This document shows, piece after piece, positions 11,939 to 53,894 of a DNA stretch of 54,276 nt. The DNA is from a virus, in the IMG/VR virus record IMGVR_UViG_3300029720_000017; one strand, written 5' to 3'. A program made the position numbers and the translations under genes. Each line of letters begins with the position of its first letter. Position 1 is the first letter of the stretch. The notes beneath the pieces were generated by a model. It was not told the DNA's origin, ran no database searches, and saw nothing but the letters and a program-made list of their open reading frames with translations.

Positions 11939-12979
11939 TTAAGACGCGATGACGTCCAGGATGTACACGCTGTCCGCAGACTCGAAGGAGGGCAGACAAA
12001 TCATGGTGACCTTGGTCTCCACGTTCACGGGGTCGGTCTTCTGGACAGTGGTAACAGCCACGCCAGTGTCAGTGATAGACACGTTGGCGGCACCAGTACC
12101 CATCAGGTCGGACTCCTCGGGAGTGGTACCGAACCACGTATTACCCAGAGTGCCCTCGGGGAACAGGACGACGGTGTCATCAGGTACAAACTGAGTAGCC
12201 GTACCGGCATCGTTCTTGTAACGCTTGCCGTAGACGATGAGCTCCAGACCCAGCTCATCCATCAGGTACTGGCTCAGGCGGGCATCGGACAGGGCAGAGA
12301 CCTGACCATTGGACAGGACGAAGATGGACTTGATGATTTTCTCGTTAACACGCAGGTAGCCCCACGTCTTACGAGTGCAGACACCACGAGTGGGACGCAC
12401 ACCAGTGTCATCCTCAATCTTGTCCATGGCCTTACGCATATCCTCAATGGGGTCAGAAGTCGTGGTGCTCCAGGAAGTAGTCACCTCGGACTTGTGGTCA
12501 CTGGGGATACCGTAGTCGTAGTTGTACGCCTGACCGTTGGCAGTGATAGCGATGGCACCAGTGGTCAGAGCCATCATTCTCATCTGCTCACGGCGGGCAC
12601 GAGCGCCCTCCAGCAGATGCATCTCGTCGGCGAACACACGATTCATGACGGCATCGATGTACGCCTGATTGCCGGTCTCCATGACCATATTCAGCTGCTG
12701 ACGCAGCTCTTCGTCGATGTAGGTGCTCTCCTTGAAGAAGGGCATCTCAGCAGACAGCTTGTCGAAGCCGATACGCGGACGAGGCACCGCGCCGACATCG
12801 AATGCGGAGGGCTTCAGCACGACGGGCAGACCGTTGGCACCCTTAATCCAGTCGAGCTTCAGACCCAGCTTCTTGTCAGCGGGGAACAGCTCCTCGCCCA
12901 GATAGGGAGGCATGTCCTGACGGTGCTCTTCCCAGTAGGAAGTCAGCTCCGGGGCTTTGACGAGGTCAAAAATAGTCAT
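11939..12979 (-). CDS. major capsid protein, lambda gpE-like family
   Basis: 346 aa. MTIFDLVKAPELTSYW...LFPADKKLGLKLDWIKGANGLPVVLKPSAFD matches the Phage_cap_E pattern as I recall it. Confidence 0.8.
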   Translation of the reverse strand: MTIFDLVKAPELTSYWEEHRQDMPPYLGEELFPADKKLGLKLDWIKGANGLPVVLKPSAFDVGAVPRPRIGFDKLSAEMPFFKESTYIDEELRQQLNMVMETGNQAYIDAVMNRVFADEMHLLEGARARREQMRMMALTTGAIAITANGQAYNYDYGIPSDHKSEVTTSWSTTTSDPIEDMRKAMDKIEDDTGVRPTRGVCTRKTWGYLRVNEKIIKSIFVLSNGQVSALSDARLSQYLMDELGLELIVYGKRYKNDAGTATQFVPDDTVVLFPEGTLGNTWFGTTPEESDLMGTGAANVSITDTGVAVTTVQKTDPVNVETKVTMICLPSFESADSVYILDVIAS

Positions 12980-13001: not shown

Positions 13002-13400
13002 TTACTTCAGGAAGGTGATGTTCTTCATCTCACTCTTCCGGGTCGCCGTGATGAGCGCGGCAGTGGTGGTGTCCAGCTTGTTCAGGTCAACGAAGCCCCA
13101 AATCAGCAGGGTGCCGTTGTTGTCACCGTTGGTAACGTCAACGTCATGCAGCAGAACGCCAGTAGCGGCCTTGCCGTCGTTGCCAGCAGAGGTAGCATCC
13201 TTGGCCTGAACAAAAGCCGTTTCACGAGCGGTCAGGTCACCACTCAAGGGAGTGCCCGCAGGGACAATCTTCTTGCCATCGCGGGTGACAGAGTAGGCGT
13301 CATCGACCACGATACTGACAGACATCTGGTTCTGAACGTTGAACAGAATCTGTACAGGAGCCGCGCCGGTGACTTTGGTAATGCCGGTGTTGTTGAACAT
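13002..13400 (-). CDS. head decoration-like protein
   Basis: 132 aa immediately upstream of an E-type capsid gene, the usual place for a decoration protein. Confidence 0.45.
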   Translation of the reverse strand: MFNNTGITKVTGAAPVQILFNVQNQMSVSIVVDDAYSVTRDGKKIVPAGTPLSGDLTARETAFVQAKDATSAGNDGKAATGVLLHDVDVTNGDNNGTLLIWGFVDLNKLDTTTAALITATRKSEMKNITFLK

Positions 13401-13415: not shown

Positions 13416-14093
13416 TCAGTTTTTGAAATAGTTGCTCTTACCGCCGGAGGTCTTGTGTGCCTTTGCGAGTCGGGCACCCAAACCCTCTTCATCGGTGGAT
13501 TTACGATTGGAACCTCTGGTGGAACCACCTGTTCCAGTGTTCTTCTGGGTCTCACCAAACATCGTGGGGTACTTGGTCTTCAGCTCTTCCAGCACCTTGG
13601 TGATGGGCTTTTCCTCCGTCACCTTGGGAGCCGCCAGTGTAATGATGTCATCAACGCAGTCGGGATTTACCCCGGCCGACAGTGCAGCGACCTTCATTTC
13701 CAGCTGAGTTGCCTTGGCATTGGCTTCGTCACGAGCAGCCTCCGCAGCCTTTTTCGCTTCTGCATCCAGCTGCTGCTGGGTCTTACCCGCGTCAAGAGTC
13801 TTCTTGATGGTGGCCATCTGAGTTTTGAAGTCCTTGTCGTCCTTGTACTCCAAACCCAGCTCTTTCAGGATAGCCTGTCTTGCAGTACGCTTCTCATTTG
13901 CCATCATAGCATTGAGCTGCTCCTGTGTGTAGGACTTTCCCTCTTGCTGCTGATTGTTCTGATTGCCCTGAGTATTCTGCTGACCGCCTTCACCGCCACC
14001 AGAGTTACCCTGAGAGCCACCGTCGCCACCTTCTCCGCCCTCAGCGAAGAATTGGAGACCAATGTGCTTGAGACTCATAGATTCCTGTTTCAT
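13416..14093 (-). CDS. scaffolding protein with an L27-like LQFFA N-terminal motif
   Basis: The N-terminus is MKQESMSLKHIGLQFFAEGG, followed by a G/Q-rich linker and a long coiled-coil. It lies upstream of the capsid genes. Confidence 0.7.
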   Translation of the reverse strand: MKQESMSLKHIGLQFFAEGGEGGDGGSQGNSGGGEGGQQNTQGNQNNQQQEGKSYTQEQLNAMMANEKRTARQAILKELGLEYKDDKDFKTQMATIKKTLDAGKTQQQLDAEAKKAAEAARDEANAKATQLEMKVAALSAGVNPDCVDDIITLAAPKVTEEKPITKVLEELKTKYPTMFGETQKNTGTGGSTRGSNRKSTDEEGLGARLAKAHKTSGGKSNYFKN

Positions 14094-14120: not shown

Positions 14121-14522
14121 TCACCGTGCATGGTAACGGTAATCCAGTTGATGAATTTCGCCCTCAATCTGGTAAAGGGCACCATCAAGCTGTTTTGCGA
14201 GCTCAGCCCGCATGCAGCTCAATTTACTATCAATCTTGCCAATTCTGTAGGCAAGCTTCATGGGGACGGGCTTGTTCATGGCGAAGAACTTTGCCCTCTT
14301 GAGGTACAGCTCCTTGGCCTCGGAAAGAACTTCCTTGGTGAACTGGTCATCCACCTGTACGATGGACTCCTTACCGCAGCAGGGGCAGGTCAGAACCGTC
14401 ATTGTGATGTCCCGGCCTTTCTCATTCAGCAGGAATGTGGCATGCACCACCTTCTCGGAAATGTTGCCGGAGACCTCAACCATGGCGTGACACAAATCAC
14501 ACCGGGTAACATTTGTTTTCAT
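14121..14522 (-). CDS. zinc-ribbon protein (CxxH...CPCC), hypothetical
   Basis: GGAGGA RBS. Contains CDLCH and CPCCG pairs and is the first gene after the promoter at 14566-14594. Confidence 0.6.
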   Translation of the reverse strand: MKTNVTRCDLCHAMVEVSGNISEKVVHATFLLNEKGRDITMTVLTCPCCGKESIVQVDDQFTKEVLSEAKELYLKRAKFFAMNKPVPMKLAYRIGKIDSKLSCMRAELAKQLDGALYQIEGEIHQLDYRYHAR

Positions 14523-14565: not shown

Positions 14566-14594
14566 ATTATACTCTTAGTTATCGAAAAAGTAAA
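14566..14594 (-). promoter_or_regulatory. internal promoter for the scaffold/capsid genes (TTTACT-N17-TATAAT)
   Basis: agtaaa at 14589-14594 and attata at 14566-14571. Confidence 0.7.
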
Positions 14595-14619
14595 GCCCTC
14601 CTGTGGGAAAAGGAGGGCT
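14594..14619 (-). terminator. intrinsic terminator ending the ARH moron
   Basis: Stem agccctcc/ggagggct with a 10-nt loop. On the minus strand it is followed by TTTACTTTTT. Confidence 0.7.
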
Positions 14620-14652
14620 TTTCAGAGTTATAATTCTCTCAGGAATTCAGTT

Positions 14653-15486
14653 TTATACCAGCCACGCAGCCACGTGAGAAAGCTCGTCTGAAACGGTCTT
14701 CTCGAGGACCTCGAGCCACTGTGAGGGGATGGCAGAGTAACCATATAGGGCACCGGCGAGACCACCAGCGAGAGCCGCTATCGTGTCAGCGTCGCCACCG
14801 TCGTTCACGGCACCGAAGATGGCCTCCCGGAAGTCTCTCGTGTTATTTACCCAATACAGGGCATTGTTCAGAGTATTTATAACATGACCAGTAGGTTCCA
14901 TGTGAACACAGGGAGGAATCGCCCGGTCATCCATCATGTTGTTCACTGCCCGATAATACTTTACGATAGCTTCATCGCACACATCATTGGTATGGGTGAG
15001 CTTGGACTGTTCCCGTGCCAGACTGAGGTCTTTGGCAAGGCAGGGCACCAGACACCGCATCAGGCCACCGTTACCATAGTCCTGACGGCCACGCTTGCGC
15101 TGACGTTCCATATTCCTAACACTCCAAATGTCCCATCTGTGTCCTCTGTTCCCGGAGATGGCTGCATGACAGGTACTGCCAACATCAATCGGACCATCGT
15201 CCAACCAGTTCTCAAAGTTCTTGGCAATCTGAGTCATTCGACCGCTGAAAGTCAGCCTGTCCATCATGCCTCTTGCCACACAGAGCATCATCTGTGTATC
15301 ATCAGTAACCATACCGATGTCAATATTCAGCCAGCCACCACCGATGATGTCAGTCACCTGACCATACTGCTTCTTGATGCCCTCAGCGGTCATGAACTCC
15401 GTCGTGGCACCCATAGCATCACCGATGGCAAACCCATACAGGGCACCCATTATCTTGTCAATTCTCTTATTCTCATTCGTGTTCAT
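14653..15486 (-). CDS. ADP-ribosylglycohydrolase (ARH/DraG family)
   Basis: Contains GALYGFAIGDAMGATTEF near the N-terminus and GGDADTIAALAGGLAGALYG near the C-terminus, both family hallmarks. Confidence 0.85.
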   Translation of the reverse strand: MNTNENKRIDKIMGALYGFAIGDAMGATTEFMTAEGIKKQYGQVTDIIGGGWLNIDIGMVTDDTQMMLCVARGMMDRLTFSGRMTQIAKNFENWLDDGPIDVGSTCHAAISGNRGHRWDIWSVRNMERQRKRGRQDYGNGGLMRCLVPCLAKDLSLAREQSKLTHTNDVCDEAIVKYYRAVNNMMDDRAIPPCVHMEPTGHVINTLNNALYWVNNTRDFREAIFGAVNDGGDADTIAALAGGLAGALYGYSAIPSQWLEVLEKTVSDELSHVAAWLV

Positions 15487-15670
15487 ACTTAGGACAACCT
15501 CCTCCCAGCAGGGTATCTACCAACTTTACCGTGTACCTTTTGCACCGAGACACATTCCCCAGCACCTTGGTATCATCCAGTCTGTATATGCAGTCCTTGC
15601 ATATCAAGTCCTTATTGGAGATACCCATAACTGCCTGACTCTCAGACTCTATACGTTCTTTCATGCTCAT
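15473..15670 (-). CDS. small Cys-rich hypothetical protein
   Basis: AGGAGG RBS 7 nt upstream. Contains CKDC...C...C and overlaps its neighbours at both ends, consistent with translational coupling. Confidence 0.55.
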   Translation of the reverse strand: MSMKERIESESQAVMGISNKDLICKDCIYRLDDTKVLGNVSRCKRYTVKLVDTLLGGGCPKYEHE

Positions 15671-15948
15671 AGTACAGCCTCCTTACTGCCAACGACCATC
15701 GTACAATTCCTCGACGGCCATATCACGCCAATACACATTCCGGCGAATCCAACCGTTACTCTGATGGGTCCAACCTCAATGAAGTCGCTCTCAATATCGA
15801 TAAAGGTTGTCTCGTCCTTTACATTCTTGCCTATGAGAACCGTGGGGTACTTCTTCTCATTGTCCATCAGCTCAATCAATTCAGCATAAGAATTGAAGTT
15901 GATGTACATAGACTTGTTCTCAGCGACCTCTACAGCAATATTTTCCAT
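15667..15948 (-). CDS. hypothetical protein, first gene of the ARH moron
   Basis: The second ATG at 15948 lies 7 nt after GGAGG, whereas the first ATG at 15954 abuts the RBS. It is directly downstream of the promoter at 15998-16026. Confidence 0.55.
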   Translation of the reverse strand: MENIAVEVAENKSMYINFNSYAELIELMDNEKKYPTVLIGKNVKDETTFIDIESDFIEVGPIRVTVGFAGMCIGVIWPSRNCTMVVGSKEAVL

Positions 15949-15997
15949 GCTCATTCCTCCAAGTAGAATTTACAGGCTCTTCTCACCTGTCACCCCT

Positions 15998-16026
15998 ATT
16001 ATAACTCCGTTCCTTGGAAAAGTAAA
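15998..16026 (-). promoter_or_regulatory. moron promoter (TTTACT-N17-TATAAT)
   Basis: agtaaa at 16021-16026 and attata at 15998-16003. It abuts the MuF-ART stop codon. Confidence 0.7.
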
Positions 16027-16029
16027 GCA

Positions 16030-17634
16030 CTATTTTTGATTTTTGACCAAAATTTCCATAAACACACGAATTACAGAGTTTCTGTGACCATCGGACTCCT
16101 CAATCTTGTTTATACGCACCGTTGTACCGGCATTGAGTAACGTTTCACCCTCGCCTGTACCGAACTGAGAAATGGACATGATAGAGGACGCCTGTGTACC
16201 CTTGGGAGCATAGAAAACAATCTCGACATCCCCTCCAAACCCCTTATTCCAGTCAGAAGAGGTACTGGTAAATCCAGCATATTGGCCAACCTTGCCTTGA
16301 AACAGCTTGTTCAAAGACTTAACTGACATCCCTTCTAATATGCTCTTATTATCAAAAAAGTCTCCATCAAGAAAACCAGCCAAGTCTCCAAGGTCTGTAC
16401 CGCGACGCAGTATTAAATCCTTTTCCAAAGCAGCTTTCTTCAGTGCAGATTGACACCGCTGTATGTCACCAGCGTACCAATCACCATGCTTATTATCAGC
16501 AGCCTCTTTACCTCTCTTCGCAGCAGTACGCAGCCAACCATTCATCTCTTTATAGCTACTACCTGTGTATTCTCTCAAGGAAGCCTTTTCTGCCTCGGTA
16601 AATCTTTCAAAGGCCGACTCTTCCATTTCCAACATTCCCGACGTAGTTTGACGTTCAAACAGACTTATCCACTCCTTAGAGGAAGGAATTTTCTGTATGT
16701 TGGTACCGGACTGTACATTGTCCTTAACTTCGGAGGCGATACCGCCCATACCCTCAATCCACTTATCCAAAGACGGGTCAGCCTTACCTTCAACCCAGTC
16801 AGCCAACCGGTCTGCGATTTCAGTCATACTCTGCGGAATGTATGCCTCAAAGGTACACATGCCGTTAGGGTGGTCAAGAGGGAGACTATCTTTGGGAAAG
16901 TGTTTACCATCTCGCTCCATACATACTTCACAGGTACGATTGCCCCCCGCAGACAACCAGACGTAATCCTCAACGAAGGGATTGTTTTTGGTAGTTCGTA
17001 CAAAGGCTTGTTGATAGGCGTGAGACACCATTGTACGAGCCAACCGTTGAGCATTGTAGTCAACTCTCTTGGCCGCGCCGGGGTACACCTTAGACCAGTC
17101 CCAGTCTTTTCTTGCTTCAGGATTCAGGTACTTCTCCAAATCCTTGGCTATGTCATAGGCACTCTTATTCTCTGCGATACCTTGTGCTACAACTGCGTTT
17201 ATATTGTACTGAGTCTTCATGTGATTTTTCCACAGGGCACGGCTCAGGCTCCACTTCCCCTCGTAGAGCTGACCACTTGCTACCGACTTAACAATGTCAG
17301 CCGGAACAAAACTGTATGCACCTTTAATCCCAAGACCCAGTTTATCTACGAATTTACCATTGTCGTCTACCACGGCCTGAGCCGCTGACTTCATATTGCC
17401 CTCAATCTCGCCCTTGAGAGACATCTCTGCTTTCTTGAGCTCCTTCTCGAGCTCCTTCTGTAAGTTCTTCAAGTGTTCCTCGTACAGAGGGGCAGAGGGT
17501 GTCTTAGGCAGCGTTTTGGCCTTTTTAGCAACGGATTTCGCAGCATTCTTATAGATGTCTACGATGTGCTTCTGCTGCTCTTTTGTAAGCTTTACTCTCT
17601 CCAGCTCAGCTGTATTCAGGTTAAACGTTGCCAT
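16030..17634 (-). CDS. MuF/SPP1 gp7-like head morphogenesis protein fused to a C3-like ADP-ribosyltransferase domain
   Basis: MuF core: AQRLARTMV...NRTCEVCMERDGKHF...HPNGMC. The C-terminal domain has YTGSSYKEMNGWLR, LRRGT (R), FTSTS (STS) and GEGETLL (ExE). Confidence 0.8.
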   Translation of the reverse strand: MATFNLNTAELERVKLTKEQQKHIVDIYKNAAKSVAKKAKTLPKTPSAPLYEEHLKNLQKELEKELKKAEMSLKGEIEGNMKSAAQAVVDDNGKFVDKLGLGIKGAYSFVPADIVKSVASGQLYEGKWSLSRALWKNHMKTQYNINAVVAQGIAENKSAYDIAKDLEKYLNPEARKDWDWSKVYPGAAKRVDYNAQRLARTMVSHAYQQAFVRTTKNNPFVEDYVWLSAGGNRTCEVCMERDGKHFPKDSLPLDHPNGMCTFEAYIPQSMTEIADRLADWVEGKADPSLDKWIEGMGGIASEVKDNVQSGTNIQKIPSSKEWISLFERQTTSGMLEMEESAFERFTEAEKASLREYTGSSYKEMNGWLRTAAKRGKEAADNKHGDWYAGDIQRCQSALKKAALEKDLILRRGTDLGDLAGFLDGDFFDNKSILEGMSVKSLNKLFQGKVGQYAGFTSTSSDWNKGFGGDVEIVFYAPKGTQASSIMSISQFGTGEGETLLNAGTTVRINKIEESDGHRNSVIRVFMEILVKNQK

Positions 17635-17653: not shown

Positions 17654-19063
17654 TTAATTCTCACCCAACAACTTTTTCCAAGTTGCCTCGCCCACAATAC
17701 CGTCTACAGACAAACCAGCGTGGGACTGGAATGCCCTCACAGACGACTCCGTACCAGAACCAAACTCACCGTCAGCGCCATACCCGCCGCAGTTGTAGCC
17801 ATAACCCAGAAGCAGCGTCTGCAGGACAGCCACTTTACCGGCCTTGGCACCATTTTGGAGCTCAGGGAAACCGATAGTGACACAGTCCTTCTGCACCGGC
17901 TCAGGAGTGGGCTCAGGCTCAGGAACATAGGTCAGACCACAGAACTCACACAGAGCCTTGCAATCTGCCACCGCACATTCCTTCATGTGGAGATGGAACC
18001 ACTCTGCATCATCCACATTGTCATGGAATACGTGCTCCTGGTAGACTGCCCATGCCTTGGTATCCTCCAGCTCATGCAGGTCACCACGAACCGTAGTCTT
18101 GCAACCGTAGGGATAGAACTCCTTACGATACTTGACCATCAGCTCTGCCAGCTTCTTCCCGTTGGGACTGTCCGGATGGTACATGGAGGTGAAACCCTTG
18201 GCTTTGCCGCGACCAGTCGGTCCAGTGGTGCTTCCGTTGGTGTGGGATACATAGTGGATTTTCGCACCCCACTGATTGGACTCCTTGATGGCGCGGTACA
18301 TATACACCTCGCCGTCCTCATTGGACATAGGCGTCCGGCGCGGACCTCTCTTGGTGTCAAAGCCACAGCGCTCCAGCATGGGCTGCAAAATGTCCATGAA
18401 CTCGTTATTCTCCAACGTTTCATAGCACTGTTTACCATCAGGTCGAGCATAGCAGCACTCGTTCGCACGGTGATACGCAGGGCTGAGGTAAATCTTGGGC
18501 TTCTTTACCGGAGGCGTGGTATCGTCCTCAGTGTTCGTGTAGTCAGGGTATCCGAAGGTATACGTGGACTTGGTCGTGTACTCTTTCTCATACACGCCAC
18601 CGCCATTGGGAATGACACCGGCATCGGGATTGGTGTTACCCTCAATGGAACGGAACCTCTTTCCATTCACCCAAGAGACAATACCGGTATGGTCCTCACC
18701 GAAGAACACCTGAGCACCAACCTGAGGAGTGCTGCCGAGTCTACCAATAGCCTTGAAGAACCCCTTGGAGTACTTGCAGCCAGCACCAGTAGAGTCAGAG
18801 GGCTGATTCAACAGCCGCTTGGCTTCGTCTACTCCAAATGCCTGTACAAAGCACCAGTCTACAAAACAGTCACACCATGCATACCCCTGTTTCGGACCGT
18901 TGTAGAAGTGAGGGATGGCATCAAGGTCTCTGGCATACTTGGTGAAGTTCCTGTAACCAGCGTTGGCCGTCTTGCTATCAAGATACTTCGCCTCATCGGT
19001 GACTTTCTCCAGATAACCCAACTCGGCCTGAGCTATCTGGAGAACCTTTGCCGCGCTGCTCAT
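17654..19063 (-). CDS. three-domain endolysin: CHAP-like, MurNAc-L-Ala amidase-like and PG_binding_1
   Basis: The N-terminus GYAWCDCFVDW...HTGIV is CHAP-like. There is a central amidase-like region. The C-terminus GADGEFGSGTESSVRAFQSHAGLSVDGIVGEATWKKL is a peptidoglycan-binding repeat. The start overlaps the holin stop (ATGA). Confidence 0.8.
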   Translation of the reverse strand: MSSAAKVLQIAQAELGYLEKVTDEAKYLDSKTANAGYRNFTKYARDLDAIPHFYNGPKQGYAWCDCFVDWCFVQAFGVDEAKRLLNQPSDSTGAGCKYSKGFFKAIGRLGSTPQVGAQVFFGEDHTGIVSWVNGKRFRSIEGNTNPDAGVIPNGGGVYEKEYTTKSTYTFGYPDYTNTEDDTTPPVKKPKIYLSPAYHRANECCYARPDGKQCYETLENNEFMDILQPMLERCGFDTKRGPRRTPMSNEDGEVYMYRAIKESNQWGAKIHYVSHTNGSTTGPTGRGKAKGFTSMYHPDSPNGKKLAELMVKYRKEFYPYGCKTTVRGDLHELEDTKAWAVYQEHVFHDNVDDAEWFHLHMKECAVADCKALCEFCGLTYVPEPEPTPEPVQKDCVTIGFPELQNGAKAGKVAVLQTLLLGYGYNCGGYGADGEFGSGTESSVRAFQSHAGLSVDGIVGEATWKKLLGEN

Positions 19064-19275
19064 GCAGCCTCCTTAAGACCCTTGTTGTAGCTTGCGGAAC
19101 TGAACCCCAACACCGCGCCGAGGAACACCGTGATGCAGGAAATGGTGCTCACAATCTGCTCGGCATACGGCCAGCCCCAAACCCCGGCCAGACCGGAGTA
19201 CAGGGCGGAGATGGCGGGCAGGACGATAATCACCACCCACTTCAGGACGTCGTACATTTTGTTGCTCAACTTCAT
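19060..19275 (-). CDS. holin, Dp-1-like family
   Basis: From the second ATG (19275, 7 nt after AGGAG) the product starts MKLSNKMYDVLKWVVIIVLPAISALY, which resembles the pneumophage Dp-1 holin. Two TM segments. Confidence 0.7.
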   Translation of the reverse strand: MKLSNKMYDVLKWVVIIVLPAISALYSGLAGVWGWPYAEQIVSTISCITVFLGAVLGFSSASYNKGLKEAA

Positions 19276-19319
19276 GTTCATTCTCCTTTCATTATGTTAC
19301 AGCTTTCGCCAAGAGAGAC

Positions 19320-20879
19320 TTATTCATTGACAGGAGGCTCCTCTTCTTCCTCTTCCTCAGGATTGTTCTCACCGGTGCCCTGAGGGGGCTCAGTATTCAG
19401 CTCCATAAAGGCATCCTCCAAAATCTGGCGCTCAAGGGCAATCTGCCGCAGCTCCTCATCGGCCTCTTCGTCTGTAAGGTTGCGCCATTTCTTCATGTAG
19501 GCTTTCTTGGACATCGTCTGGGCATTGACCTCAGCCAAATCCACCTGTTTCTCCTCGGACTCATCCTCGGGGAGGGGGTACTGATTGTCAACGCGGACGG
19601 TATAGTCCACATCAGGTAACTGCTCTTCAATGTACTTGGCACCGGCTTCAGGATACAGACGAGCACCCTCAATAATGCACCGAACCATCAGCTCCAGAGC
19701 AGGACGCCACACCAGCATCTTGTCTTCGCAGCGGACAATCAGGTCCCAGTAGATGGCCTTGAGAGTCTTACCGGAAGATACAACACCCTTCAGAGCCTCA
19801 GGGCTGACATTGGGGACGGCACACTGTTCGTGAGTCATGCTCTTGATACGGTCAAGGGTCGTACCCAGAGCCGCGCTGTAACTCATCGGGGAATCCAGAA
19901 CGCCTACCTGTGCTGCACGGTCTGTGGCCTGATTCTGGTCGGATGCGATATCCCAGAAAGCACCCGCAGAAATACTCAAGCTCTTGGTACTCTCAGGGGA
20001 GGCATCCACCGTGTACCGGATAGGATTCATGCCCTTGCGCTCTGCATCCATATCAGCAGCGGCCAACTTACTGTACCATGCCTCATACTCGCTGAGCAGC
20101 TCAACCTCGGACATACCAATCAGGTCACCAGTCAGACCGTCGTTGACGATGACACAAGCAGGAATGAACTCGAACAGAGTGGCAGTCGGCTCAGACAGAG
20201 TCTCAATGAGTTCGCCCATGCCATTGTAGATTTCCTCAGAGTACCAGCACACACCATTCTCCAGCCAGTACTTCTTCTTGTAGATACGCTGGTCTTGCTT
20301 GGACTTCTCGTCGTTGATGCCGTAGAAAGCCACGATTTTGGTGAGCTTGTTGTAATCTTGAGGGTCAACGTCATACACGAACTCAAGGCTCGGAAGGAAG
20401 CTGACCTGCATACCCTCCTCTGTGTTGACATTGAACATCAGAGCTACCCGCTTACCGATGAAGCAGTCTTTTGCAGCCTGAACCAGCGCAGAACGGAAGT
20501 TGTTTTCCTTCAGCACACTATCCACCAGCTCCTGATAGATGGTGGCTGCTTCCTTGGCTTTTTCTCTCTGCTCTTTGGTATCACCCAAATCCACATCCAC
20601 AAACAGGTCAGGGGACTTGGAGAACAGAAAACGCGCTTCCTTGTCTATCAAGGCTCTTGTGATTTTGTACCGCAGGTCTGCCGGAGTGTAGTCCTTTGTA
20701 CTCTCAACAGGGTACTGGACACCTTTCTCGTAGGTATCATACAGCTGTATGATTTTATACATATCCCGCAGAACGGCGGAACCATACATGCCCTCCAACT
20801 CGGCCTTGATAAGCGAGGAGGGGACATTCAACAGGCGGGACACCTCTATGGAGACATCCCTGTTTACGCTTGCTGCCAT
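19320..20879 (-). CDS. portal protein, SPP1 gp6-like
   Basis: 519 aa immediately after terL with overlapping start/stop and an acidic C-terminal tail. Confidence 0.8.
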   Translation of the reverse strand: MAASVNRDVSIEVSRLLNVPSSLIKAELEGMYGSAVLRDMYKIIQLYDTYEKGVQYPVESTKDYTPADLRYKITRALIDKEARFLFSKSPDLFVDVDLGDTKEQREKAKEAATIYQELVDSVLKENNFRSALVQAAKDCFIGKRVALMFNVNTEEGMQVSFLPSLEFVYDVDPQDYNKLTKIVAFYGINDEKSKQDQRIYKKKYWLENGVCWYSEEIYNGMGELIETLSEPTATLFEFIPACVIVNDGLTGDLIGMSEVELLSEYEAWYSKLAAADMDAERKGMNPIRYTVDASPESTKSLSISAGAFWDIASDQNQATDRAAQVGVLDSPMSYSAALGTTLDRIKSMTHEQCAVPNVSPEALKGVVSSGKTLKAIYWDLIVRCEDKMLVWRPALELMVRCIIEGARLYPEAGAKYIEEQLPDVDYTVRVDNQYPLPEDESEEKQVDLAEVNAQTMSKKAYMKKWRNLTDEEADEELRQIALERQILEDAFMELNTEPPQGTGENNPEEEEEEEPPVNE

Positions 20880-22192
20880 TATGATTCTCCTTTCCGACTA
20901 TTTCTGGGCAGATACTTGATATCTGCGACCTCATACACGTCCAAAGCATACCAGATAGCCGAGAAGGTATGAGGGTCTATGTTAAACTCGTCATAAACGA
21001 GATTGCCTTGGTTGTCCTTGGCATAGGTCAGAGTACGAAGTTCTCGTATCGTGTTGGGACAGTTGGGACTGCAGATGATACGCCGGAAGCGCTTGACCTT
21101 CCTTGTATTCGCCAGTCTTGAGCCCGCCCATTTGTGGCACCCACGCATCCTGAAACCGGATTGACGATAAAAAGCGATGGCTTTGGGGTCTTCACAGTCG
21201 GCGATAATTTGTACCTTGTCCAGTCCATCCTTTTTGAGCTCCTTTTCCGTCTTGTCGTCTGTCATCTTGTTCTTGTAGTACTCATAATAGATGTACAGAA
21301 CCTTGGCTGCATCGTCCACAGCACACTTGATTACAGCATTGTAAGACTCTTCAAATCCAAAGTCCATACCACAGAACCGGAATTTCTCAGGGATACCCTT
21401 CACCGCTGCAATCACCTCAGCATGGCTCTTGGCAACCTCAAACTGAGGCAGTACCTGTCTACCGTTCAGACCGAAGCGACCAAGACGAGCCACCCTATAC
21501 AGGTCAGGGTCATACTCCCTCATCTCATTCAGAGTGTCAATGTAGGACTGAGGGAGGAACAGGTTGTCATCGGCGACGCTATGGTGATAATAGACCCCGT
21601 TCTTGACGATGGTACGCCGCTTGTACAGCAGCTCGTCGTCTAAGACAACATGTTCCCGCCCCTCTTCGTCTACGCGCTTGAAGAAGTGAGTGTAGACCCA
21701 GTTTTCCGTACCGACGGGATTTGTGCTCAGGATGAAGTGCAGAGGCAAGGTGGGGTGACGCAAACGACCGAGGAGTTCTTTGTAACCGTCGTACTTGATT
21801 TCAGAGCACTCCTCAAGCCATACAATCGTCACACCGTTGATGGACTTCAGCTTGGAGGGCTTATCCATTCCCTTGAAGATGATTTTGCTACCGTTGGGGA
21901 ACCGTATACCGAGCGGAGAGGTCGTGCAGCGCACTTTCTTGGCACTCTGACCAACCAAATCCAGCTCATCAAGGATTTCCACCAGCAGGTCGTAGCAGGA
22001 CTCTCTCAGGGTATCATACACCTCACGCACAACCAGCACCTTGCGCTTCTCCATAAGGCACTTGAAAATGATTTTACAGGCGATGTGATAAGACTTGGAC
22101 GAGCCATACCCTCCTACAAGGAGGTACTTACTGTAATCCCAGTCCCAGATGAAATTTTCAAACCGAGGATTGACCTCCTTGTAGAGTTCCAT
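20879..22192 (-). CDS. terL: terminase large subunit, PBSX family
   Basis: Walker A-like [17 protein letters not shown] (Walker B-like), and length and order typical of PBSX-type TerL. Confidence 0.85.
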
Positions 22193-22624: not shown

Positions 22625-23299
22625 TTACAGGCCAGCCCGATACTTGTCGATTCTGACCTTCATTTCGCTTTCCTGATGCACATAAGGGATACCTCCAACC
22701 CGCTGACGGATGTCATCGTCAATGACACCATACAGAATCAGCTGACTGGGCTTGAGTCGCTTGAGCATCTCGCTGAATCCCCGATTGAACAGCATCCTCG
22801 CATTGGAATTTTGCATGCAGCCTACCGTGGATACACAGATACAGGAACCCTCAGGCATACCATCGAAGCAGTATTCAAAAGACTCTTCGTCGCTCCACTG
22901 AGCAGAGGGTACAACCCGAATGCCCAGAGAATTCATGTAAGAAGCCAACCACATATTTCTGTAGTAGTTCCAGATACGCATGGCACGAGGCATTGTCGTG
23001 TACTGGCTGAGGTCAGGCTGGATAATACCCTTGTACTGACCGAGGATGCCAGCATAGAAGTCCGGATTGTCCCAAACCCTCTCAATATACTGGTCAGGCA
23101 GGTAGAAATGAACCAGCTCGTCCTCTCTATCTACCATGTTTTCGGGCTTGGTACAGTAGTTAAACCCGATGAGGTGCTGCTTGTCCAGCTTCTTGAACTT
23201 CACCCCCGGAATTTTAGGTACATCATACCGTCCAACCAACTCCGGAGAGAATTTCTTTGTCTTCATAAAGTGTAGGAAGTCCTTTTCGCCAATAACCAT
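22625..23299 (-). CDS. DUF4417 domain protein
   Basis: LVHFY..D...ERVW..PD...PDLSQYTTMP...IWNYYRNMWLASY...GIRVVPSAQWSDEESFEYCFDGMP matches my recollection of DUF4417. Confidence 0.65.
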   Translation of the reverse strand: MVIGEKDFLHFMKTKKFSPELVGRYDVPKIPGVKFKKLDKQHLIGFNYCTKPENMVDREDELVHFYLPDQYIERVWDNPDFYAGILGQYKGIIQPDLSQYTTMPRAMRIWNYYRNMWLASYMNSLGIRVVPSAQWSDEESFEYCFDGMPEGSCICVSTVGCMQNSNARMLFNRGFSEMLKRLKPSQLILYGVIDDDIRQRVGGIPYVHQESEMKVRIDKYRAGL

Positions 23300-24006
23300 C
23301 AGTTGTCATCTCCTTTCGCTTTTGCTCGGACTACGTTGATTGTAATGGAGTCATCTCCATCGCCCTCTTCAAGCAGCTTTTTCTTCATGTTGAACTCATC
23401 CAGACGCAGCTTCATCTCTCGGCTCATCTTGTCAATCTCAGCTCTCTCCCTGGAAGTTACCCACTTGGCACCATAGGCACAATCAAGGACATGCCTTGCA
23501 CCGCCTTGACCGTCTCTATCATACAGGCGGCTTTCAACATACTCCTCAATACGCTGTCTTGCGGTATTCAATACACGCGCAAAAGTACTCATATCATCTG
23601 TGTCACAGCGCATTTCATCCAGAATGTTGTCTATAGCGCCACCTCTATATTCCATCATCGTTGTAGTTGAGAGTCCAAGGGCTCTTGCAAATCCTGAGAC
23701 CGTGTATGGACGGACTTGTACCCTGACAGGGCGACCATCCTCACCCATTACAATCTCACCATTCTTGTTAAATGTGTAACCCATGCAAGACTCAAAATAA
23801 GCCTCACACTTGGCTTGCAAATCTTCAACCGACAGAAACAGAGCTCTTCTACCGGGATTGTCAGTCATGCCTCTTTTCAAGGGCAACCGAATCCCTCTGA
23901 AGTCCAGTACCACATGTCTGGCGTCCAGCCAGCGTGACCGTATGACCGGATGTGCCGGGGCGTCGATAATCACTTTATGAATCCGTTCCTTCGCACGAGT
24001 GGCCAT
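23299..24006 (-). CDS. terS: terminase small subunit
   Basis: ATG at 24006 lies 8 nt after AGGAGG. RPYTVSGFARALGLSTTTMMEY and ARQRIEEYVESRLY are terS-like HTH/core motifs. First gene of the late block. Confidence 0.7.
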   Translation of the reverse strand: MATRAKERIHKVIIDAPAHPVIRSRWLDARHVVLDFRGIRLPLKRGMTDNPGRRALFLSVEDLQAKCEAYFESCMGYTFNKNGEIVMGEDGRPVRVQVRPYTVSGFARALGLSTTTMMEYRGGAIDNILDEMRCDTDDMSTFARVLNTARQRIEEYVESRLYDRDGQGGARHVLDCAYGAKWVTSRERAEIDKMSREMKLRLDEFNMKKKLLEEGDGDDSITINVVRAKAKGDDN

Positions 24007-24038
24007 CACGTTCACCTCCTTTCCAATTTCGACGAATA

Positions 24039-24084: not shown

Positions 24085-24113
24085 ATTATACTACTTCTCG
24101 TGAAAAAAGTAAA
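24085..24113 (-). promoter_or_regulatory. late-block promoter upstream of terS (TTTACT-N17-TATAAT on the minus strand)
   Basis: agtaaa at 24108-24113 and attata at 24085-24090 on the plus strand, with a 17-nt spacer. Confidence 0.7.
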
Positions 24114-24767: not shown

Positions 24768-24796
24768 TTTACTTTTGCATCCGGAGGAGTTATAAT
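24768..24796 (+). promoter_or_regulatory. early promoter P1 (TTTACT-N17-TATAAT) with an upstream A/T-tract UP-like element
   Basis: TTTACT at 24768-24773 and TATAAT at 24791-24796. aaaatttt-type tracts at 24726-24762. Confidence 0.75.
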
Positions 24797-30188: not shown

Positions 30189-30374
30189 ATGAAGACAATG
30201 GTTGTATTCAGTAGAGAAGATTTTGAGGGCTTATCAGCTCTGCTTCAGAACGCTGTACATGATGCTGAAGTCCTTGAAAAGAACAACTCAAGTTACCTTA
30301 CCAGTAGACTGATAGACACTCTGCATAACGTACAACAATACTTGAAGGAGGACAACGACAATGGAGATGACTAA
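30189..30374 (+). CDS. hypothetical small protein
   Basis: GGAGG RBS, 61 aa. Confidence 0.5.
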   Translation: MKTMVVFSREDFEGLSALLQNAVHDAEVLEKNNSSYLTSRLIDTLHNVQQYLKEDNDNGDD

Positions 30375-30882
30375 GCGGATTGTAGAAATCATGAAGGTTC
30401 TTAGAAAACTCGGTATGCACGAAAATCTAATCGGGTTCCTCTATACTGTTACCGCCGTGGATGCCATACTCAATAGTGACCATGTGCTTCGGACCATGGA
30501 AATCTATGAAGCGGTAGAAGAGGCAGTTGGAATCCCTGCCAGCCGAGTGGAACGAAGCATTCGTCACTCGATAAAGACCCTATATGCAACCTCAAAGACA
30601 GTTCGGAATTCCCTAATCTTGGGGACGTCCTGTTGTTCATACAAGGACATCCCTTCCAATTCAACCTTCCTGTCTTCTGTAGCCAACTACATCCGTATGC
30701 AGGAGTATGAGGACACTAACAGAGTCACCTACTATTCCCGGCCTATAAACGCTGATGGAGACCCTGTATTTGCTCCTGACCTTGCGGAAAGGAAGTACGT
30801 AGCTGGATGGGGTGGTGGAGCGGAAACTGGTAGATACTGCCCCAATTTAACGGAGGTGATTACCCGTGATATAGAAGCCTGA
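30361..30882 (+). CDS. Spo0A C-terminal (DNA-binding) domain protein with no receiver domain
   Basis: LGMHENLIGFLYTVTAVDAIL...IYEAVEEAVGIPASRVERSIRHSIKTLY parallels Spo0A-C (HIKGYLYLREAI...ASRVERAIRHAIEVAW). It starts directly at that domain and has a ~60-aa unrelated C-terminal tail. Confidence 0.8.
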   Translation: MEMTKRIVEIMKVLRKLGMHENLIGFLYTVTAVDAILNSDHVLRTMEIYEAVEEAVGIPASRVERSIRHSIKTLYATSKTVRNSLILGTSCCSYKDIPSNSTFLSSVANYIRMQEYEDTNRVTYYSRPINADGDPVFAPDLAERKYVAGWGGGAETGRYCPNLTEVITRDIEA

Positions 30883-30999: not shown

Positions 31000-31028
31000 T
31001 TTACTTTTGTAAAAGATGGAGTTATAAT
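31000..31028 (+). promoter_or_regulatory. promoter P2 (TTTACT-N17-TATAAT)
   Basis: TTTACT at 31000 and TATAAT at 31023. Its ~80-bp context is near-identical to that of P5. Confidence 0.75.
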
Positions 31029-32505: not shown

Positions 32506-33102
32506 ATGGATTTTAACTTTGCTGTAAAGAACAGGAGTGAAGAGGAGCGTATACAGCTGCTTCAGAGCACCCTTGTGATGAGCGGAATCAGTCCTAAGAG
32601 CTTTCCTATGGATTGGCTTGCCAGTACTGACTACTTCCGTGCCCCGGCCTCTAAGAAGTTTCATGCAGCATACCCCGGAGGCCTGTATGAGCATAGTCTG
32701 AACGTCACCTATAAACTGCTCCAATTCACTGAAGCTGGTCTGTGTTCTCCGTGGGGACGGCCGGAAAGTCCTATCATTGTAGGTATGCTGCATGACGCAA
32801 CCAAGATTGGACGGTATGCAGAATTCAAAGAGGTCAACCCCGATACTGGAGAGATGGAGATTTTCTACAAGGACAATCCCGACTACGTAAACCTCGGCGG
32901 ACATGGAAATGACTCTGTTCTCAAGCTCAAGCAGGTCATGAGGCTCACGGAGGAAGAGGAGCTGTGTATCAGGTATCACATGGGTGCTTATGAGACCGAT
33001 GATTGGGACGGCTTTGACAAGGCCATCCGCAAGTTCCCGAACGTACTATTCACCCATACCGCTGACATGTATGCCTCCAAGTGCATGGAGGTGACTCCGT
33101 GA
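32506..33102 (+). CDS. HD-domain phosphohydrolase
   Basis: Contains KKFHAAYPGGLYEHSLNV and GMLHDATKIG (H...HD...D pattern). Confidence 0.7.
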   Translation: MDFNFAVKNRSEEERIQLLQSTLVMSGISPKSFPMDWLASTDYFRAPASKKFHAAYPGGLYEHSLNVTYKLLQFTEAGLCSPWGRPESPIIVGMLHDATKIGRYAEFKEVNPDTGEMEIFYKDNPDYVNLGGHGNDSVLKLKQVMRLTEEEELCIRYHMGAYETDDWDGFDKAIRKFPNVLFTHTADMYASKCMEVTP

Positions 33103-34133
33103 GGAACAAGCCGGGGGACATTCCCTACCTCGGCGTTCGCAAGGAGCTGGTACTGACGGCTGAGCCTACCTTAGATGAGGAAGTCCTGCTACACCTGTAT
33201 CGGTTCATCACTCGGCGGTATAAAGTCCATATCAAGAAGGACATCCAAGGTCTACCAGCTCCTTGGACAAAAGACCCGGTCATACAGAACTATCGGTTTA
33301 CCAATGTCAGACGGGAGCATGACAAGGAAACTCGTTGGCTGATACAAAATATCGTCAACAATCCAAACGTTACCTATGAGGACAAGCTCCTCAACTGCGT
33401 GCTTTTCCGACTCTACAATAAACATGAAACATCAGAGCTGCTATCTCAACCTATTCCCTTTACTCATATTATAGAGAAGAACGGTGTATGGGATCCGGAT
33501 TCCTATCGAGCACTCTTTGCCGCACAGGATTGCATATACCCTGAGCGAGTTTTCTTTACTGGAGTGTTCATGGTGAGTGGGTTGCTTCGTATCGCTAACC
33601 AGTACACTCCCGAAGGAACGGACGAAGAGGACACCAGAATGCGACCTCTGTGGCTTCTGAGACATCTGGTAGACCTGCACTTACCCGACCGGATAAAACG
33701 CTGCAAGACGGCTCGAGAGGTCTGCAGAGTCCTTTCTCGAATTGATGGTATTGGGGTGTTCCTTGGGTACCAGATGTTCGTGGATATGACCTACATACCG
33801 GAGTTCCCTTTCAGTGAGAACGAGTACGTAGTGGCTGGCCGTGGTTGTCAAAGGGGCTGCGAGTATCTGTTTGAAGACTCCGATGACATGACTTACGAAG
33901 AGTGTATCTTTTGGCTGCGAGACCATCTTGAGGACATCTTTGCCGAGCATACAAAGGGAAAATTTAGCTGCAAGACCCTGTTCCATGACCTCCCTCCTTA
34001 TGACCAGCAGTTCAATGTCATGAGCATAGAGAATTGTCTGTGCGAACTCAGTAAATACACCAGAGTTCTACGTAAAGAGGGAAGACCAAGAAAACGTTAT
34101 CAAGGAGGACAAGATGAAAAAGACAAGAAATGA
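33099..34133 (+). CDS. candidate DNA base-hypermodification enzyme (aGPT-pyrophosphorylase-like)
   Basis: GTG at 33099 lies 5 nt after GGAGGTG with a GTGA overlap. The motif PWTKDPVIQNYRFTNVRREHDKETRW matches my recollection of the alpha-glutamyl/putrescinyl-thymine pyrophosphorylase family signature. This assignment needs an HMM check. Confidence 0.5.
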   Translation: MRNKPGDIPYLGVRKELVLTAEPTLDEEVLLHLYRFITRRYKVHIKKDIQGLPAPWTKDPVIQNYRFTNVRREHDKETRWLIQNIVNNPNVTYEDKLLNCVLFRLYNKHETSELLSQPIPFTHIIEKNGVWDPDSYRALFAAQDCIYPERVFFTGVFMVSGLLRIANQYTPEGTDEEDTRMRPLWLLRHLVDLHLPDRIKRCKTAREVCRVLSRIDGIGVFLGYQMFVDMTYIPEFPFSENEYVVAGRGCQRGCEYLFEDSDDMTYEECIFWLRDHLEDIFAEHTKGKFSCKTLFHDLPPYDQQFNVMSIENCLCELSKYTRVLRKEGRPRKRYQGGQDEKDKK

Positions 34134-34716
34134 GCTGCGACGAGACCGGATTTATGACATCATCATAACCATTGTGATGGTACTGGTGCTCATTGCCGTG
34201 GGTATCCAAATCGGTGCTTGGATTGAAAATGCCAAGTATGAGCCCAAGGAGAGCAAACAGGTCTACTACGAAGCCAGTGATTGTGCCTTTGAGATGCCTG
34301 AAGACCCACTGGAGACTTATCTCATTGAACGAGCAATCATGGCCAAGCCTACTCCCGCTGTAATGGGTTATGACTATGATTATGTGTGTCGTGTTGTTAT
34401 GGCTGAGACCGGGGGCGAGTACAATGAAGACCTTACACTGGCAGTATGTCAGGCTATTGCCAATGCCGCTGTAGAAAACAACTGGACTCCCGAGGAAGTC
34501 TGTATCAAGTACAAGTACACCAGACCCCACGAGTATACCAGTGACTTCATTCAAAACATCTGTGACCGAGTGTTTATTCAGGGCGAAGTATATGAGGCCT
34601 CTGGAAATGCTCAGGTTTTCTACAATCCCAGTTATGGTCACAGCAGCTACCATGAGAGTCAGAGCTTTGTGTGTGAAATTGGTGGTGTTCGGTTCTTTGA
34701 GAGGGTGAGTGTATGA
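34114..34716 (+). CDS. membrane-anchored cell-wall hydrolase, SleB-like (Hydrolase_2)
   Basis: N-terminal TM segment IYDIIITIVMVLVLIAVGIQIGAW. The catalytic-domain motifs VCRVVMAETGGE, LAVCQAIANA, VFYNP and IGGVRFF parallel SleB C-terminal motifs. Confidence 0.65.
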   Translation: MKKTRNELRRDRIYDIIITIVMVLVLIAVGIQIGAWIENAKYEPKESKQVYYEASDCAFEMPEDPLETYLIERAIMAKPTPAVMGYDYDYVCRVVMAETGGEYNEDLTLAVCQAIANAAVENNWTPEEVCIKYKYTRPHEYTSDFIQNICDRVFIQGEVYEASGNAQVFYNPSYGHSSYHESQSFVCEIGGVRFFERVSV

Positions 34717-35531
34717 TACCTGTATTCGTACCTTCCTACAAGCGTCCCAAGGCTAAATTCCTTGTACGCGCCATGGAGCAGGAATTTCCTCTGTATGTCT
34801 TTGTGCGTAAAGAGGAGAGGGATGCCTACGCATGGATAAAGGAGCGCCCTGATACTACTCTGGTATTGCTGTCCAACGTTTCTAACATTGGTGAGACTCG
34901 CAGAGCCATGTTCCGCTATGCTGTACACCATCGGATACCTAAAATCATCATGGTGGACGATGACGTTACCCGTTTAGACTTGTCTATGGTTGACCCGGTA
35001 TCCGGAAGGGTAAAGGCTTCCGGCAATGTGACTGGTCATACTGAGAGCTGGAACAAGGTCATTACTCGGTTTGAAAATCTCTGGGGTAAACAGGCCATGT
35101 TCGGTGCCTCTTATAGACCCTTCAGTTGGTCTATGTCTGAGGAGGAAATTCTCAAGCTGAGTAGAGGTCAGCTTCAGCAGGTCGTTGGTATCAATGTCAA
35201 ACAGATTTACAAGGCTGGCCTGAATTATCAGAGCAATACAGTCGTTGGAAATGAAGACCTGTTCCTCCAGCTGGAGTGCTATCAGCAGGGATTGGAGTGT
35301 GTCAAAACCAATGCTATTCAGTATGACTGTCCCGCTATGGGTGCCGGAGAAGGAGGCTGTAATGCTTCGGAGCTCGGTTCTCTTGCAGAAAAGCAGAGAG
35401 TCAGGGTAGAGGCATTTCTCAAGGCATGTAATAATTCTCCCGCTGTACGAGTGGCTACTACCAGAAGCGGGATTGAGAGTATCAAGTTCAACTGGAAAGA
35501 GATAAACAAGATGATGGAGGGAGTACTATGA
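34713..35531 (+). CDS. GT-A-like glycosyltransferase (candidate DNA glycosyltransferase)
   Basis: MIPVFVPSYKRP at the N-terminus and IIMVDDDV (DxD-type). The genomic context is nucleotide-metabolism genes. Confidence 0.5.
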   Translation: MIPVFVPSYKRPKAKFLVRAMEQEFPLYVFVRKEERDAYAWIKERPDTTLVLLSNVSNIGETRRAMFRYAVHHRIPKIIMVDDDVTRLDLSMVDPVSGRVKASGNVTGHTESWNKVITRFENLWGKQAMFGASYRPFSWSMSEEEILKLSRGQLQQVVGINVKQIYKAGLNYQSNTVVGNEDLFLQLECYQQGLECVKTNAIQYDCPAMGAGEGGCNASELGSLAEKQRVRVEAFLKACNNSPAVRVATTRSGIESIKFNWKEINKMMEGVL

Positions 35532-41121: not shown

Positions 41122-41150
41122 TTTACTTTTTCAATCCGCCATGTTATAAT
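41122..41150 (+). promoter_or_regulatory. promoter P4 (TTTACT-N17-TATAAT)
   Basis: TTTACT at 41122 and TATAAT at 41145. Confidence 0.7.
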
Positions 41151-48209: not shown

Positions 48210-48238
48210 TTTACTTTTCCAAAAGATAGAGTTATAAT
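48210..48238 (+). promoter_or_regulatory. promoter P5 (TTTACT-N17-TATAAT)
   Basis: TTTACT at 48210 and TATAAT at 48233. Upstream A/T tracts. Confidence 0.75.
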
Positions 48239-53865: not shown

Positions 53866-53894
53866 ATTATACTCCTCTGAAACGGAAAAGTAAA
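53866..53894 (-). promoter_or_regulatory. promoter for the XhlA-like/sigma-like unit (TTTACT-N17-TATAAT)
   Basis: agtaaa at 53889-53894 and attata at 53866-53871. Confidence 0.7.

Follow-up and report, generated by a model that had tools for sequence, protein, structure and literature searches.

What does a phage gain from an ADP-ribosylhydrolase (ARH) gene and two small genes placed directly behind the gene of a head protein that ends in an ADP-ribosyltransferase (ART) domain? The question is raised by positions 14,566 to 17,634 of IMG/VR virus record IMGVR_UViG_3300029720_000017, whose entire 54,276-nucleotide stretch we refer to as the window. An earlier note on this DNA had described a head-packaged MuF-ART toxin followed by a three-gene moron running from its own promoter to a terminator, and had proposed that the ART and the ARH form a writer-eraser pair; every feature that it described is present at the place assigned to it or within 2-3 nucleotides (nt) of that place. 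We interpret the locus, with moderate confidence, as a MuF polymorphic-toxin cassette of a two-antidote type, in which the predicted ART toxin would be countered both by a 65-amino-acid (aa) four-cysteine protein and by the ARH, and in which the 65-aa partner is probably a third, more fundamental component of the writer-eraser system. The coordinates of all features are collected in Table 1.

The MuF-ART protein and its predicted chemistry

The 534-aa MuF-ART protein consists of a MuF part (approximately residues 1-300), a helical linker and a C-terminal ART domain. The MuF part is recognized by the Pfam model Phage_Mu_F (PF04233; residues 144-255, 33.4 bits against a curated cut-off of 29.6) and by PHROG 1657 'head morphogenesis' (1.7e-58), with TIGR01641 scoring slightly below its cut-off (38.6 versus 39.65 bits), and the C-terminal domain is recognized by ADPrib_exo_Tox (PF03496; E = 1.9e-26). 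More than 3,340 homologues of the protein were found, and almost all of the best 120 carry both domains. The R, STS and ExE motifs that had been noted before are in place as R410-R411-G412 (LRRGT), S457-T458-S459 (FTSTS) and E495-G-E497 (GEGE); none of R410-R411-G412, S457-T458 and E495/E497 varies among 27 homologues (47-90% identity), and the R, STS and (Q/E)xE motifs align with those of Lmo0066, C3 and Certhrax in phmmer searches. AlphaFold2 models the ART domain (approximately residues 320-531) with a predicted local distance difference test (pLDDT) score of about 85-94 and the MuF part poorly. The best structural match of the ART model in the PDB is 8za7_B (template modelling score of 0.85, target-normalised), the ART of a Listeria monocytogenes ART-ARH toxin-immunity pair that was crystallised with its ARH immunity protein, with C3 exoenzymes scoring about 0.75.

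The domain had also been called C3-like, which is true at the level of the family only: its third motif is ExE, the arginine type, and not the QxE of C3. In ARTs with an R-S-E active site, ExE goes with an arginine acceptor. This motif, together with the arginine-type hydrolase partner, points to an arginine acceptor here as well, and we infer that, in a newly infected cell, the injected ART would mono-ADP-ribosylate proteins at arginine residues. By homology to SPP1 gp7, the MuF part would locate the protein within the capsid, at the portal, from where it would leave with the DNA. Because synthesis of such a toxin would take place in the producing cell's cytoplasm, ahead of packaging, the phage would need protection from it, and two candidate antidotes are encoded directly downstream, under what is predicted to be a dedicated promoter.

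The two candidate antidotes

The last cassette gene, whose first 14 nt are shared with the end of the 65-aa gene, encodes the DraG/ARH-type hydrolase with metal motifs that the earlier note had recognized. It matches the Pfam family ADP_ribosyl_GH (PF03747; E = 9e-50), DraG (2woc, 4.8e-41), Tri1 (6dre, 2.2e-28) and Lmo0067 (3.1e-18). Its scores lie below the NCBIfam equivalog cut-offs for DraG (TIGR02662; 190 versus 337 bits) and Tri1 (NF041672; 124 versus 490 bits), and by these scores it is a member of the family but an ortholog of neither. The protein has the motifs GATTEF, TDDT, PIDVG, TH and GGDADT, with GATxEF, TDDT and GGDADT kept in the alignment to DraG, and the aspartate of PIDVG (D101) corresponds to the residue mutated in PDB entry 2woe. 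Residues D23, E30, T61-D62-D63-T64, D101, T164-H165 and D232/D234/T235 are invariant in 13 ARH sequences of 39-86% identity. We predict that this enzyme serves as a generic enzymatic immunity, an eraser that would strip ADP-ribose from any modified target, whatever the ART variant that had modified it.

The other candidate antidote is the 65-aa protein, which AlphaFold2 models (pLDDT 91) as a compact, mostly non-regular fold dominated by coil. Pfam, PHROG, NCBIfam, PADLOC, PDB sequence and Foldseek searches returned no match for it; a PDB match to histone H2B (E = 0.027) that came up in the searches with the small proteins was judged to be noise. The protein belongs to a previously undescribed family, of which a library of 1.8 billion proteins contains 124 representative clusters (50% identity) and which has the consensus ...ITN.DL.CKDC..R.DD....GN.S.C..Y..KP..VL.GG.C..Y.KE. 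The four cysteines are near-invariant, and the protein is probably zinc-binding. From the comparison of related loci given below, we infer that it is a cognate, toxin-specific inhibitor of the ART domain, that is, a structural immunity protein that would most likely bind and block its own ART variant. A concrete and widespread family of small proteins is thus nominated as candidate ART inhibitors.

Co-occurrence, co-variation and exchange among related loci

We gathered eight viral contigs via the ARH, 80 via the capsid protein and more via protein look-ups; the 68 capsid-related loci that retain the region from MuF to scaffold are the basis of the co-occurrence counts. An ART-type MuF is present in 18 of these 68 loci, and a four-cysteine small open reading frame (ORF) follows it in all 18, recognized in 16 of them by a hidden Markov model (E <= 1e-3) and in two divergent cases (L049 and L051) by eye from the same CxxC...C...C layout. 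The ARH is found in eight of the 18, and the ten that are without it retain the four-cysteine gene. Neither an ARH nor a 65-aa homologue occurs in the 50 non-ART MuF loci (0/50), which have either a short MuF (~300-330 aa) or one extended by something other than an ART, one such extension being of the HExxH type with a weak match to the anthrax-lethal-factor-like metallopeptidases (ATLF). Relatives with 63-100% identical capsids display the short MuF, several ART variants, the HExxH-type domain or other extensions. Every ARH in related phages with a complete locus lies one to three genes downstream of an ART-type MuF gene. This distribution, together with the co-crystallised Listeria pair, lends comparative-genomic support to the proposed pairing of writer and eraser, in which the ARH appears to be an interchangeable generic part and not a constant partner of the ART.

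Distant members of the 65-aa family (33-38% identity) show the order portal, MuF-ART (656-682 aa), small protein and overlapping ARH, and a fifth contig starts just upstream of the small gene, such that only this gene and the ARH are visible. Two further loci, L008 (2447-5680) and L009 (1650-5549), encode MuF-ART proteins of 1,077 and 1,299 aa whose middle regions are large; in each locus, one or more four-cysteine proteins and an ARH come next, with two Cys-rich small ORFs in tandem in L009.

Across loci, it is the ART domain, and not the N-domain of MuF, whose divergence the 65-aa protein follows. When the MuF N-domain is controlled for in a partial Mantel test (n = 16), the distances between 65-aa proteins correlate with those between ART domains (r = 0.58, p = 0.0005), with the reverse test giving r = 0.18 (p = 0.075). 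The same coupling is seen in mosaic loci. The phage of locus L090 is 99.7% identical to that of the window in the capsid protein, 98% in the 133-aa gene that follows the cassette, 96% in the ARH and 95% in the MuF N-domain, with only 65% identity in the ART domain, 62% in the 65-aa gene and 48% in the 93-aa gene; low values in the ART and the two small genes beside a high value in the ARH indicate that the toxin domain was exchanged together with the small genes while the ARH stayed. Locus L010 is the opposite case, with the ART domain and the 65-aa gene 100% identical to those of the window and the ARH 91% identical. Such mosaics are as expected if the small protein must recognize its own toxin variant and the hydrolase only the product of the toxin.

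Clostridium phage phiCD24-1 (L001, 3616-5896) was considered as another instance of the system and set aside: it has a MuF-ART, but the small ORFs belong to a cysteine-free family and there is no ARH. Behind its MuF-ART gene come a 58-aa ORF without cysteines, a 79-aa fragment repeating the C-terminal half of an ART domain and another two small ORFs, an arrangement that resembles a classic orphan toxin-tip/immunity array whose immunity family is a different one.

Several points weigh against the two-antidote interpretation. A cognate chaperone or packaging adaptor would give the same co-variation as an inhibitor, and the 65-aa protein of the window has a leucine at Pro50, a position occupied by proline in 90% of the family. 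Packaging of the ART is predicted from the MuF domain alone, and the ART may be a host-takeover enzyme like Alt of phage T4 instead of a lethal toxin. Finally, the protection of lysogens, which is the classical reason for immunity genes, may not apply, because no lysogeny genes were seen in scans of the ORFs of the window.

Antidote promoter, terminator and the question of timing

The consensus promoter that the earlier note placed ahead of the three cassette genes was found again, beginning 4 nt past the stop codon of the MuF-ART gene. It is one of eight copies in the window of the motif GCTTTACTTTT-N12-GT(T/A)TAAT, which can also be written with an optional leading G as (G)CTTTACTTTT-N12-GT(T/A)TAAT and of which 0.29 copies are expected by chance. 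Copies are found ahead of the terminase and scaffold/capsid operons, of the cassette and of four other modules, and each transcription unit of the phage appears to start with one. Almost all the other ART-type loci that were read, the distant loci L097-L100 included, have a -35/-10 pair right behind the MuF-ART stop codon; in the group without an ARH it has the form TTTACA-17-TGgTATAAT, and the lone small gene is flanked by a promoter and a T-run hairpin. Since the promoter recurs in this position and the small gene is so flanked, the predicted promoter-to-terminator unit for the antidote genes is best regarded as a conserved feature.

The strong terminator, first placed at 14594-14619, is likewise borne out, with its hairpin extending slightly further on both sides. 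As the moron's own end it had to be rejected: the same hairpin and promoter are found behind the short MuF gene of L015, which is the nearest relative lacking the cassette. The promoter copy that overlaps it is predicted to restart transcription into the 133-aa, scaffold and capsid genes. The label 'moron' is only partly apt, because the terminator and second promoter belong to the phage backbone, the variable unit starts in-frame inside the MuF gene, at the ART domain, and the composition is not deviant (GC content of 0.45-0.50 in the cassette against ~0.50 genome-wide); what stands of it is the conserved promoter-to-terminator layout, and 'polymorphic toxin-immunity cassette with its own antidote promoter' fits better.

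A separate promoter also raises the possibility that the cassette serves chiefly to time-limit the modification and not to protect the producing cell. The injected ART would then be an Alt-like early modifier of the host, which the inhibitor and the ARH, expressed from an early-type promoter, would switch off and erase within minutes. This is conceivable, though we are inclined to doubt it. The packaging and injection of T4 Alt (PMC5576092) provide a precedent, and the linker region of the MuF-ART protein shows weak PHROG similarity to Alt-like ARTs. The window is a complete genome, and a scan of its ORFs of at least ~170 aa outside the tail module detected no integrase or recombinase domain; it encodes PolA, a primase, an SNF2 helicase, a thymidylate-synthase-like enzyme, a 5-hydroxymethyldeoxyuridine (5-hmdU) DNA kinase and a TET-associated glycosyltransferase, and a polymerase, primase and DNA-hypermodification genes of its own are typical of a virulent phage. 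Over the 45 nt that precede it, the cassette promoter is similar to the plus-strand promoters of the replication module at 48210 and 31000 (alignment score of 10 versus -6.6 +/- 3.7 for shuffled sequences). An upstream element is common to the plus-strand copies and the copy at 16026, which share an upstream GAAAATTTT...CAAAAAT...AAAAAG element, and the other promoters of the head and structural modules do not show this A/T-rich element, which may place expression of the cassette outside the late class. However, the same core motif is common to all eight promoters, and hence no temporal class is demonstrated; with no terminator between the MuF-ART gene and the cassette, late read-through would express the cassette too; and ten ART loci have no eraser. 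A timer role is, moreover, compatible with self-protection during assembly.

Taken to its fullest extent, this line of thought would have a four-cysteine, ~65-aa, zinc-binding family of ART inhibitors accompany ExE-type ARTs across a large group of seemingly non-temperate phages of gut Clostridia, with an early-type promoter inside a late head operon and the three components acting as the timer of a short pulse of arginine ADP-ribosylation, a proposal that we put forward only tentatively. If it were true, MuF 'toxins' would extend from warfare between lysogens to programmed host takeover in lytic infection.

Other roles for the small protein and the hydrolase

The two-antidote interpretation, which we prefer, further depends on the 65-aa protein being an inhibitor of the ART. 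It might instead serve the ARH as a subunit or activator, regulate the cassette as a zinc-finger protein, or load the ART into proheads as a chaperone or adaptor. Structure comparison of its four-cysteine fold gave no match from which to assign a function, its gene overlaps the start of the ARH gene in all ARH-bearing loci, suggesting translational coupling, and a natural fusion of the 65-aa domain with an ARH exists (P0181, 351 aa). We nonetheless consider these roles unlikely: the 65-aa protein is independent of the ARH, because it is kept in the ten ARH-less ART-type loci; its divergence is tied to the ART domain and not to the part that would mediate packaging, the MuF N-domain; and an orphan copy among defence-type genes beside AbiH, with no MuF nearby, fits immunity better than an assembly factor.

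This orphan member (P0328; L102, 4001-4213) adjoins AbiH, DEAD helicase, DUF4268 and DUF6508 proteins, and other members of the family are fused to DUF6508, DUF1643 or ARH (proteins P0127, P0212, P0157 and P0181). Such members may represent orphan immunity genes or multi-immunity fusions.

That the ARH counters host ADP-ribosylating defences and adjoins the phage ART by chance or through shared regulation is very improbable: phage ARG/macro domains have been proposed as counter-defence enzymes (PMC9503650), and jumbo phages and Streptomyces phages have ARHs without an adjoining MuF-ART, but here the enzyme is absent from the non-ART loci and follows an ART-type MuF in every complete locus that has it, the predicted arginine specificities of writer and eraser agree, and the same pairing has been solved or characterised for Lmo0066/67, Tre1/Tri1 and Bxa/BAH.

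The first small gene of the cassette

Both small proteins had been suggested to be additional immunity or targeting factors, and the 65-aa protein has good comparative support in the first of these roles. The gene upstream of it carries a 1-nt deletion at ~15770/15771, located by DNA alignment with L010, L090 and L026, which leaves the last ~35 residues of its product out of frame. Intact homologues end in ...NGWIRRNVYWRD..EELY.GRW, and in the +1 frame the conserved C-terminus ...ETHQSNGWIRRNVYWRDMAVEELYDGRWQ can still be read. The gene thus appears to be a frameshifted copy of one for a conserved 80-90-aa protein, the deletion marking either a real pseudogene or an assembly error. Searches of Pfam, PHROG, NCBIfam, PADLOC, PDB sequences and Foldseek gave no match for it. 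It is found in few ART loci only, and we regard it as a putative optional accessory that is broken in the genome of the window.

Genomic setting

The window is a circular, complete assembly with a unit length of ~54.1 kb and an exact 166-bp direct repeat at 1-166 and 54111-54276. The cassette sits in a head module with the order TerL, portal, holin, endolysin, MuF-ART, cassette, scaffold, decoration protein and capsid.

Table 1. Position of the MuF-ART gene, the antidote cassette, regulatory elements and the surrounding head module in the window
Feature	Coordinates	Strand	Description or basis
Small terminase	23299-24015	-	Head module
DUF4417 protein	22625-23299	-	Head module
Large terminase (TerL)	20879-22192	-	Head module
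SPP1-type portal	19320-20879	-	Head module
Dp-1-type holin	19060-19281	-	Between portal and MuF genes
CHAP/amidase/peptidoglycan-binding endolysin	17654-19063	-	Between portal and MuF genes
MuF-ART gene	16030-17634	-	Head module, downstream of portal gene
ART catalytic domain, residues 341-523	16066-16614	-	Pfam, motifs, AlphaFold2 model
Predicted sigma-70-type promoter	15998-16026	-	TTTACT-17-TATAAT; consensus scan; upstream of the three cassette genes
Small accessory gene (cassette, downstream of MuF-ART)	15667-15954	-	95 aa from first ATG; 93 aa from better-placed second ATG
65-aa four-cysteine protein (cassette)	15473-15670	-	C24-x2-C27...C43...C59
ADP-ribosylhydrolase (cassette), 277 aa	14653-15486	-	DraG/Tri1/ARH1 family; Pfam and PDB-sequence matches
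Intrinsic terminator	14592-14621	-	11-bp stem and T-run; -21.8 kcal/mol, z = -4.6 versus shuffles
Second promoter-motif copy	14566-14594	-	-35 element overlaps the terminator T-run; context only, outside the cassette
133-aa Cys-rich protein	14121-14522	-	After the terminator
Scaffold	13416-14093	-	Head module
Decoration-like protein	13002-13400	-	Head module
Major capsid protein	11939-12979	-	Head module
Promoter-motif copies	14566-14594(-), 15998-16026(-), 24085-24113(-), 24768-24796(+), 31000-31028(+), 41122-41150(+), 48210-48238(+), 53866-53894(-)		Motif scan

The 133-aa Cys-rich protein is CpXC-like (PHROG 1315 at 1.5e-5, with weak CpXC annotation in L100 and L101). A role as a fourth component of the toxin system was rejected: its homologues lie between MuF and scaffold in most relatives, the short-MuF and cassette-less loci included, and it is most plausibly an uncharacterised backbone component of the head module. 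The lysis genes (holin and CHAP/amidase endolysin; 17654-19281, minus strand) occupy an unusual location between portal and MuF. This junction is a variable hotspot among relatives (L010, L011, L016, L017 and L090), with another endolysin in L011, 2-4 kb of different cargo in several loci and five additional small genes in L090.

Elsewhere in the window, the 5-hmdU DNA kinase (E = 2.8e-66), the TET-associated glycosyltransferase and the thymidylate-synthase-like protein are encoded at 33081-34133(+), 34713-35531(+) and 44919-45635(+), respectively, a set that suggests hypermodified thymidine in the phage DNA. A protein at 30361-30882(+) contains a Spo0A C-terminal DNA-binding domain (E = 2.4e-17), which suggests a spore-forming Clostridia host and possible interference with the control of sporulation. 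The relatives are stand-alone contigs of ~50-55 kb, which have been binned as ~53 kb contigs with metagenome-assembled genomes (MAGs) of Lachnospiraceae, Ruminococcus, Butyricicoccus and other Eubacteriales. No close annotated phage was found in GenBank, where the best match of the ARH, in Bacillus phage G, reaches 33% identity; the nearest annotated capsid, at 65% identity, is that of Clostridium phages CS266P1-4, which bear short MuF genes.

Comparison with known systems

T4 Alt is another head-carried ART delivered with the DNA. Alt is not a MuF fusion, and we know of no cognate hydrolase or inhibitor of it in T4.

Tre1/Tri1 of the Serratia type VI secretion system and Lmo0066/Lmo0067 of Listeria (PDB 8za7) each pair an ART toxin with an ARH-family immunity protein that neutralises it. 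Lmo0066 is the best match of the ART both by sequence and by structure, and Tri1 and Lmo0067 both match the ARH; Tre1 and Lmo0066 are, however, secreted effectors and not phage head proteins. Tri1 unites hydrolysis and active-site occlusion in one larger protein. It has 366 aa and Lmo0067 has 332 aa, whereas the ARH of the window has 277 aa and is accompanied by a separate small protein; the P0181 fusion recreates the single-chain arrangement of the Tri1/Lmo0067 type.

With the MuF polymorphic toxins surveyed by Jamet et al. in 2017, of which the EFV toxin of Enterococcus faecalis V583 is a studied representative and in which ARTs make up ~14% of 191 toxins (PMC5576092), the locus shares a MuF gene near the portal gene, C-terminal toxin domains that vary among relatives and a small downstream ORF. 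Glycohydrolase partners are not mentioned in that survey. Toxin-bearing MuF proteins were found there in temperate phages only and have been held to be specific to such phages (PMC5576092, PMC12226406), whereas no lysogeny module was detected in the complete genome studied here. If this is confirmed, the role ascribed to MuF toxins in competition between lysogens would need rethinking, towards host takeover or self-protection during assembly.

The division of labour proposed for the two antidotes has a counterpart in the Apk2 MuF toxins, which are countered by a specific binder, Tis1, and a universal hydrolase, Aph1, described as 'universal and specific immunities' (PMC10083569, PMC12226406). 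There too a toxin-specific binder and a universal product-reversing enzyme stand beside a MuF toxin, and the mosaic pattern of our loci fits this split; the chemistry differs, being (p)ppApp synthesis and hydrolysis in Apk2 and, by prediction, protein ADP-ribosylation here.

The nearest relative in design is Bxa, a MuF-ART of a Bacteroides stercoris prophage that ADP-ribosylates arginine and kills E. coli. Two proteins neutralise Bxa, the hydrolase BAH, encoded next to it, by enzymatic action and the small Bsi by binding, and for a third small ORF no effect was detected (Alexei et al., J Biol Chem 2024; PMC11699363). The earlier note had known of no characterised MuF-ART/ARH pairing, a statement that is out of date because the Bxa/Bsi/BAH arrangement was characterised in 2024. 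Both loci follow the same four-gene logic, with an N-terminal MuF and a C-terminal ART in the head-morphogenesis region, an ARH, a small non-enzymatic partner and an extra small ORF. They differ in that Bxa has 869 aa with a middle domain, against 534 aa here, and in gene order, BAH lying between the two small ORFs by locus tags. Bsi is described as globular and alpha-helical with at least 94 residues, which sets it apart from the 65-aa, four-cysteine, mostly coil partner of the window. Bxa belongs to a prophage of a Gram-negative host, whereas the window is a complete genome without a detected integrase, from a phage group assigned to Clostridia MAGs. The system is another example of an already characterised two-antidote kind, and its new part is modest; what it adds is that the design of a specific binder with a universal eraser, known from Bacteroides Bxa and from Apk2, recurs in abundant uncultured phages of gut Clostridia.

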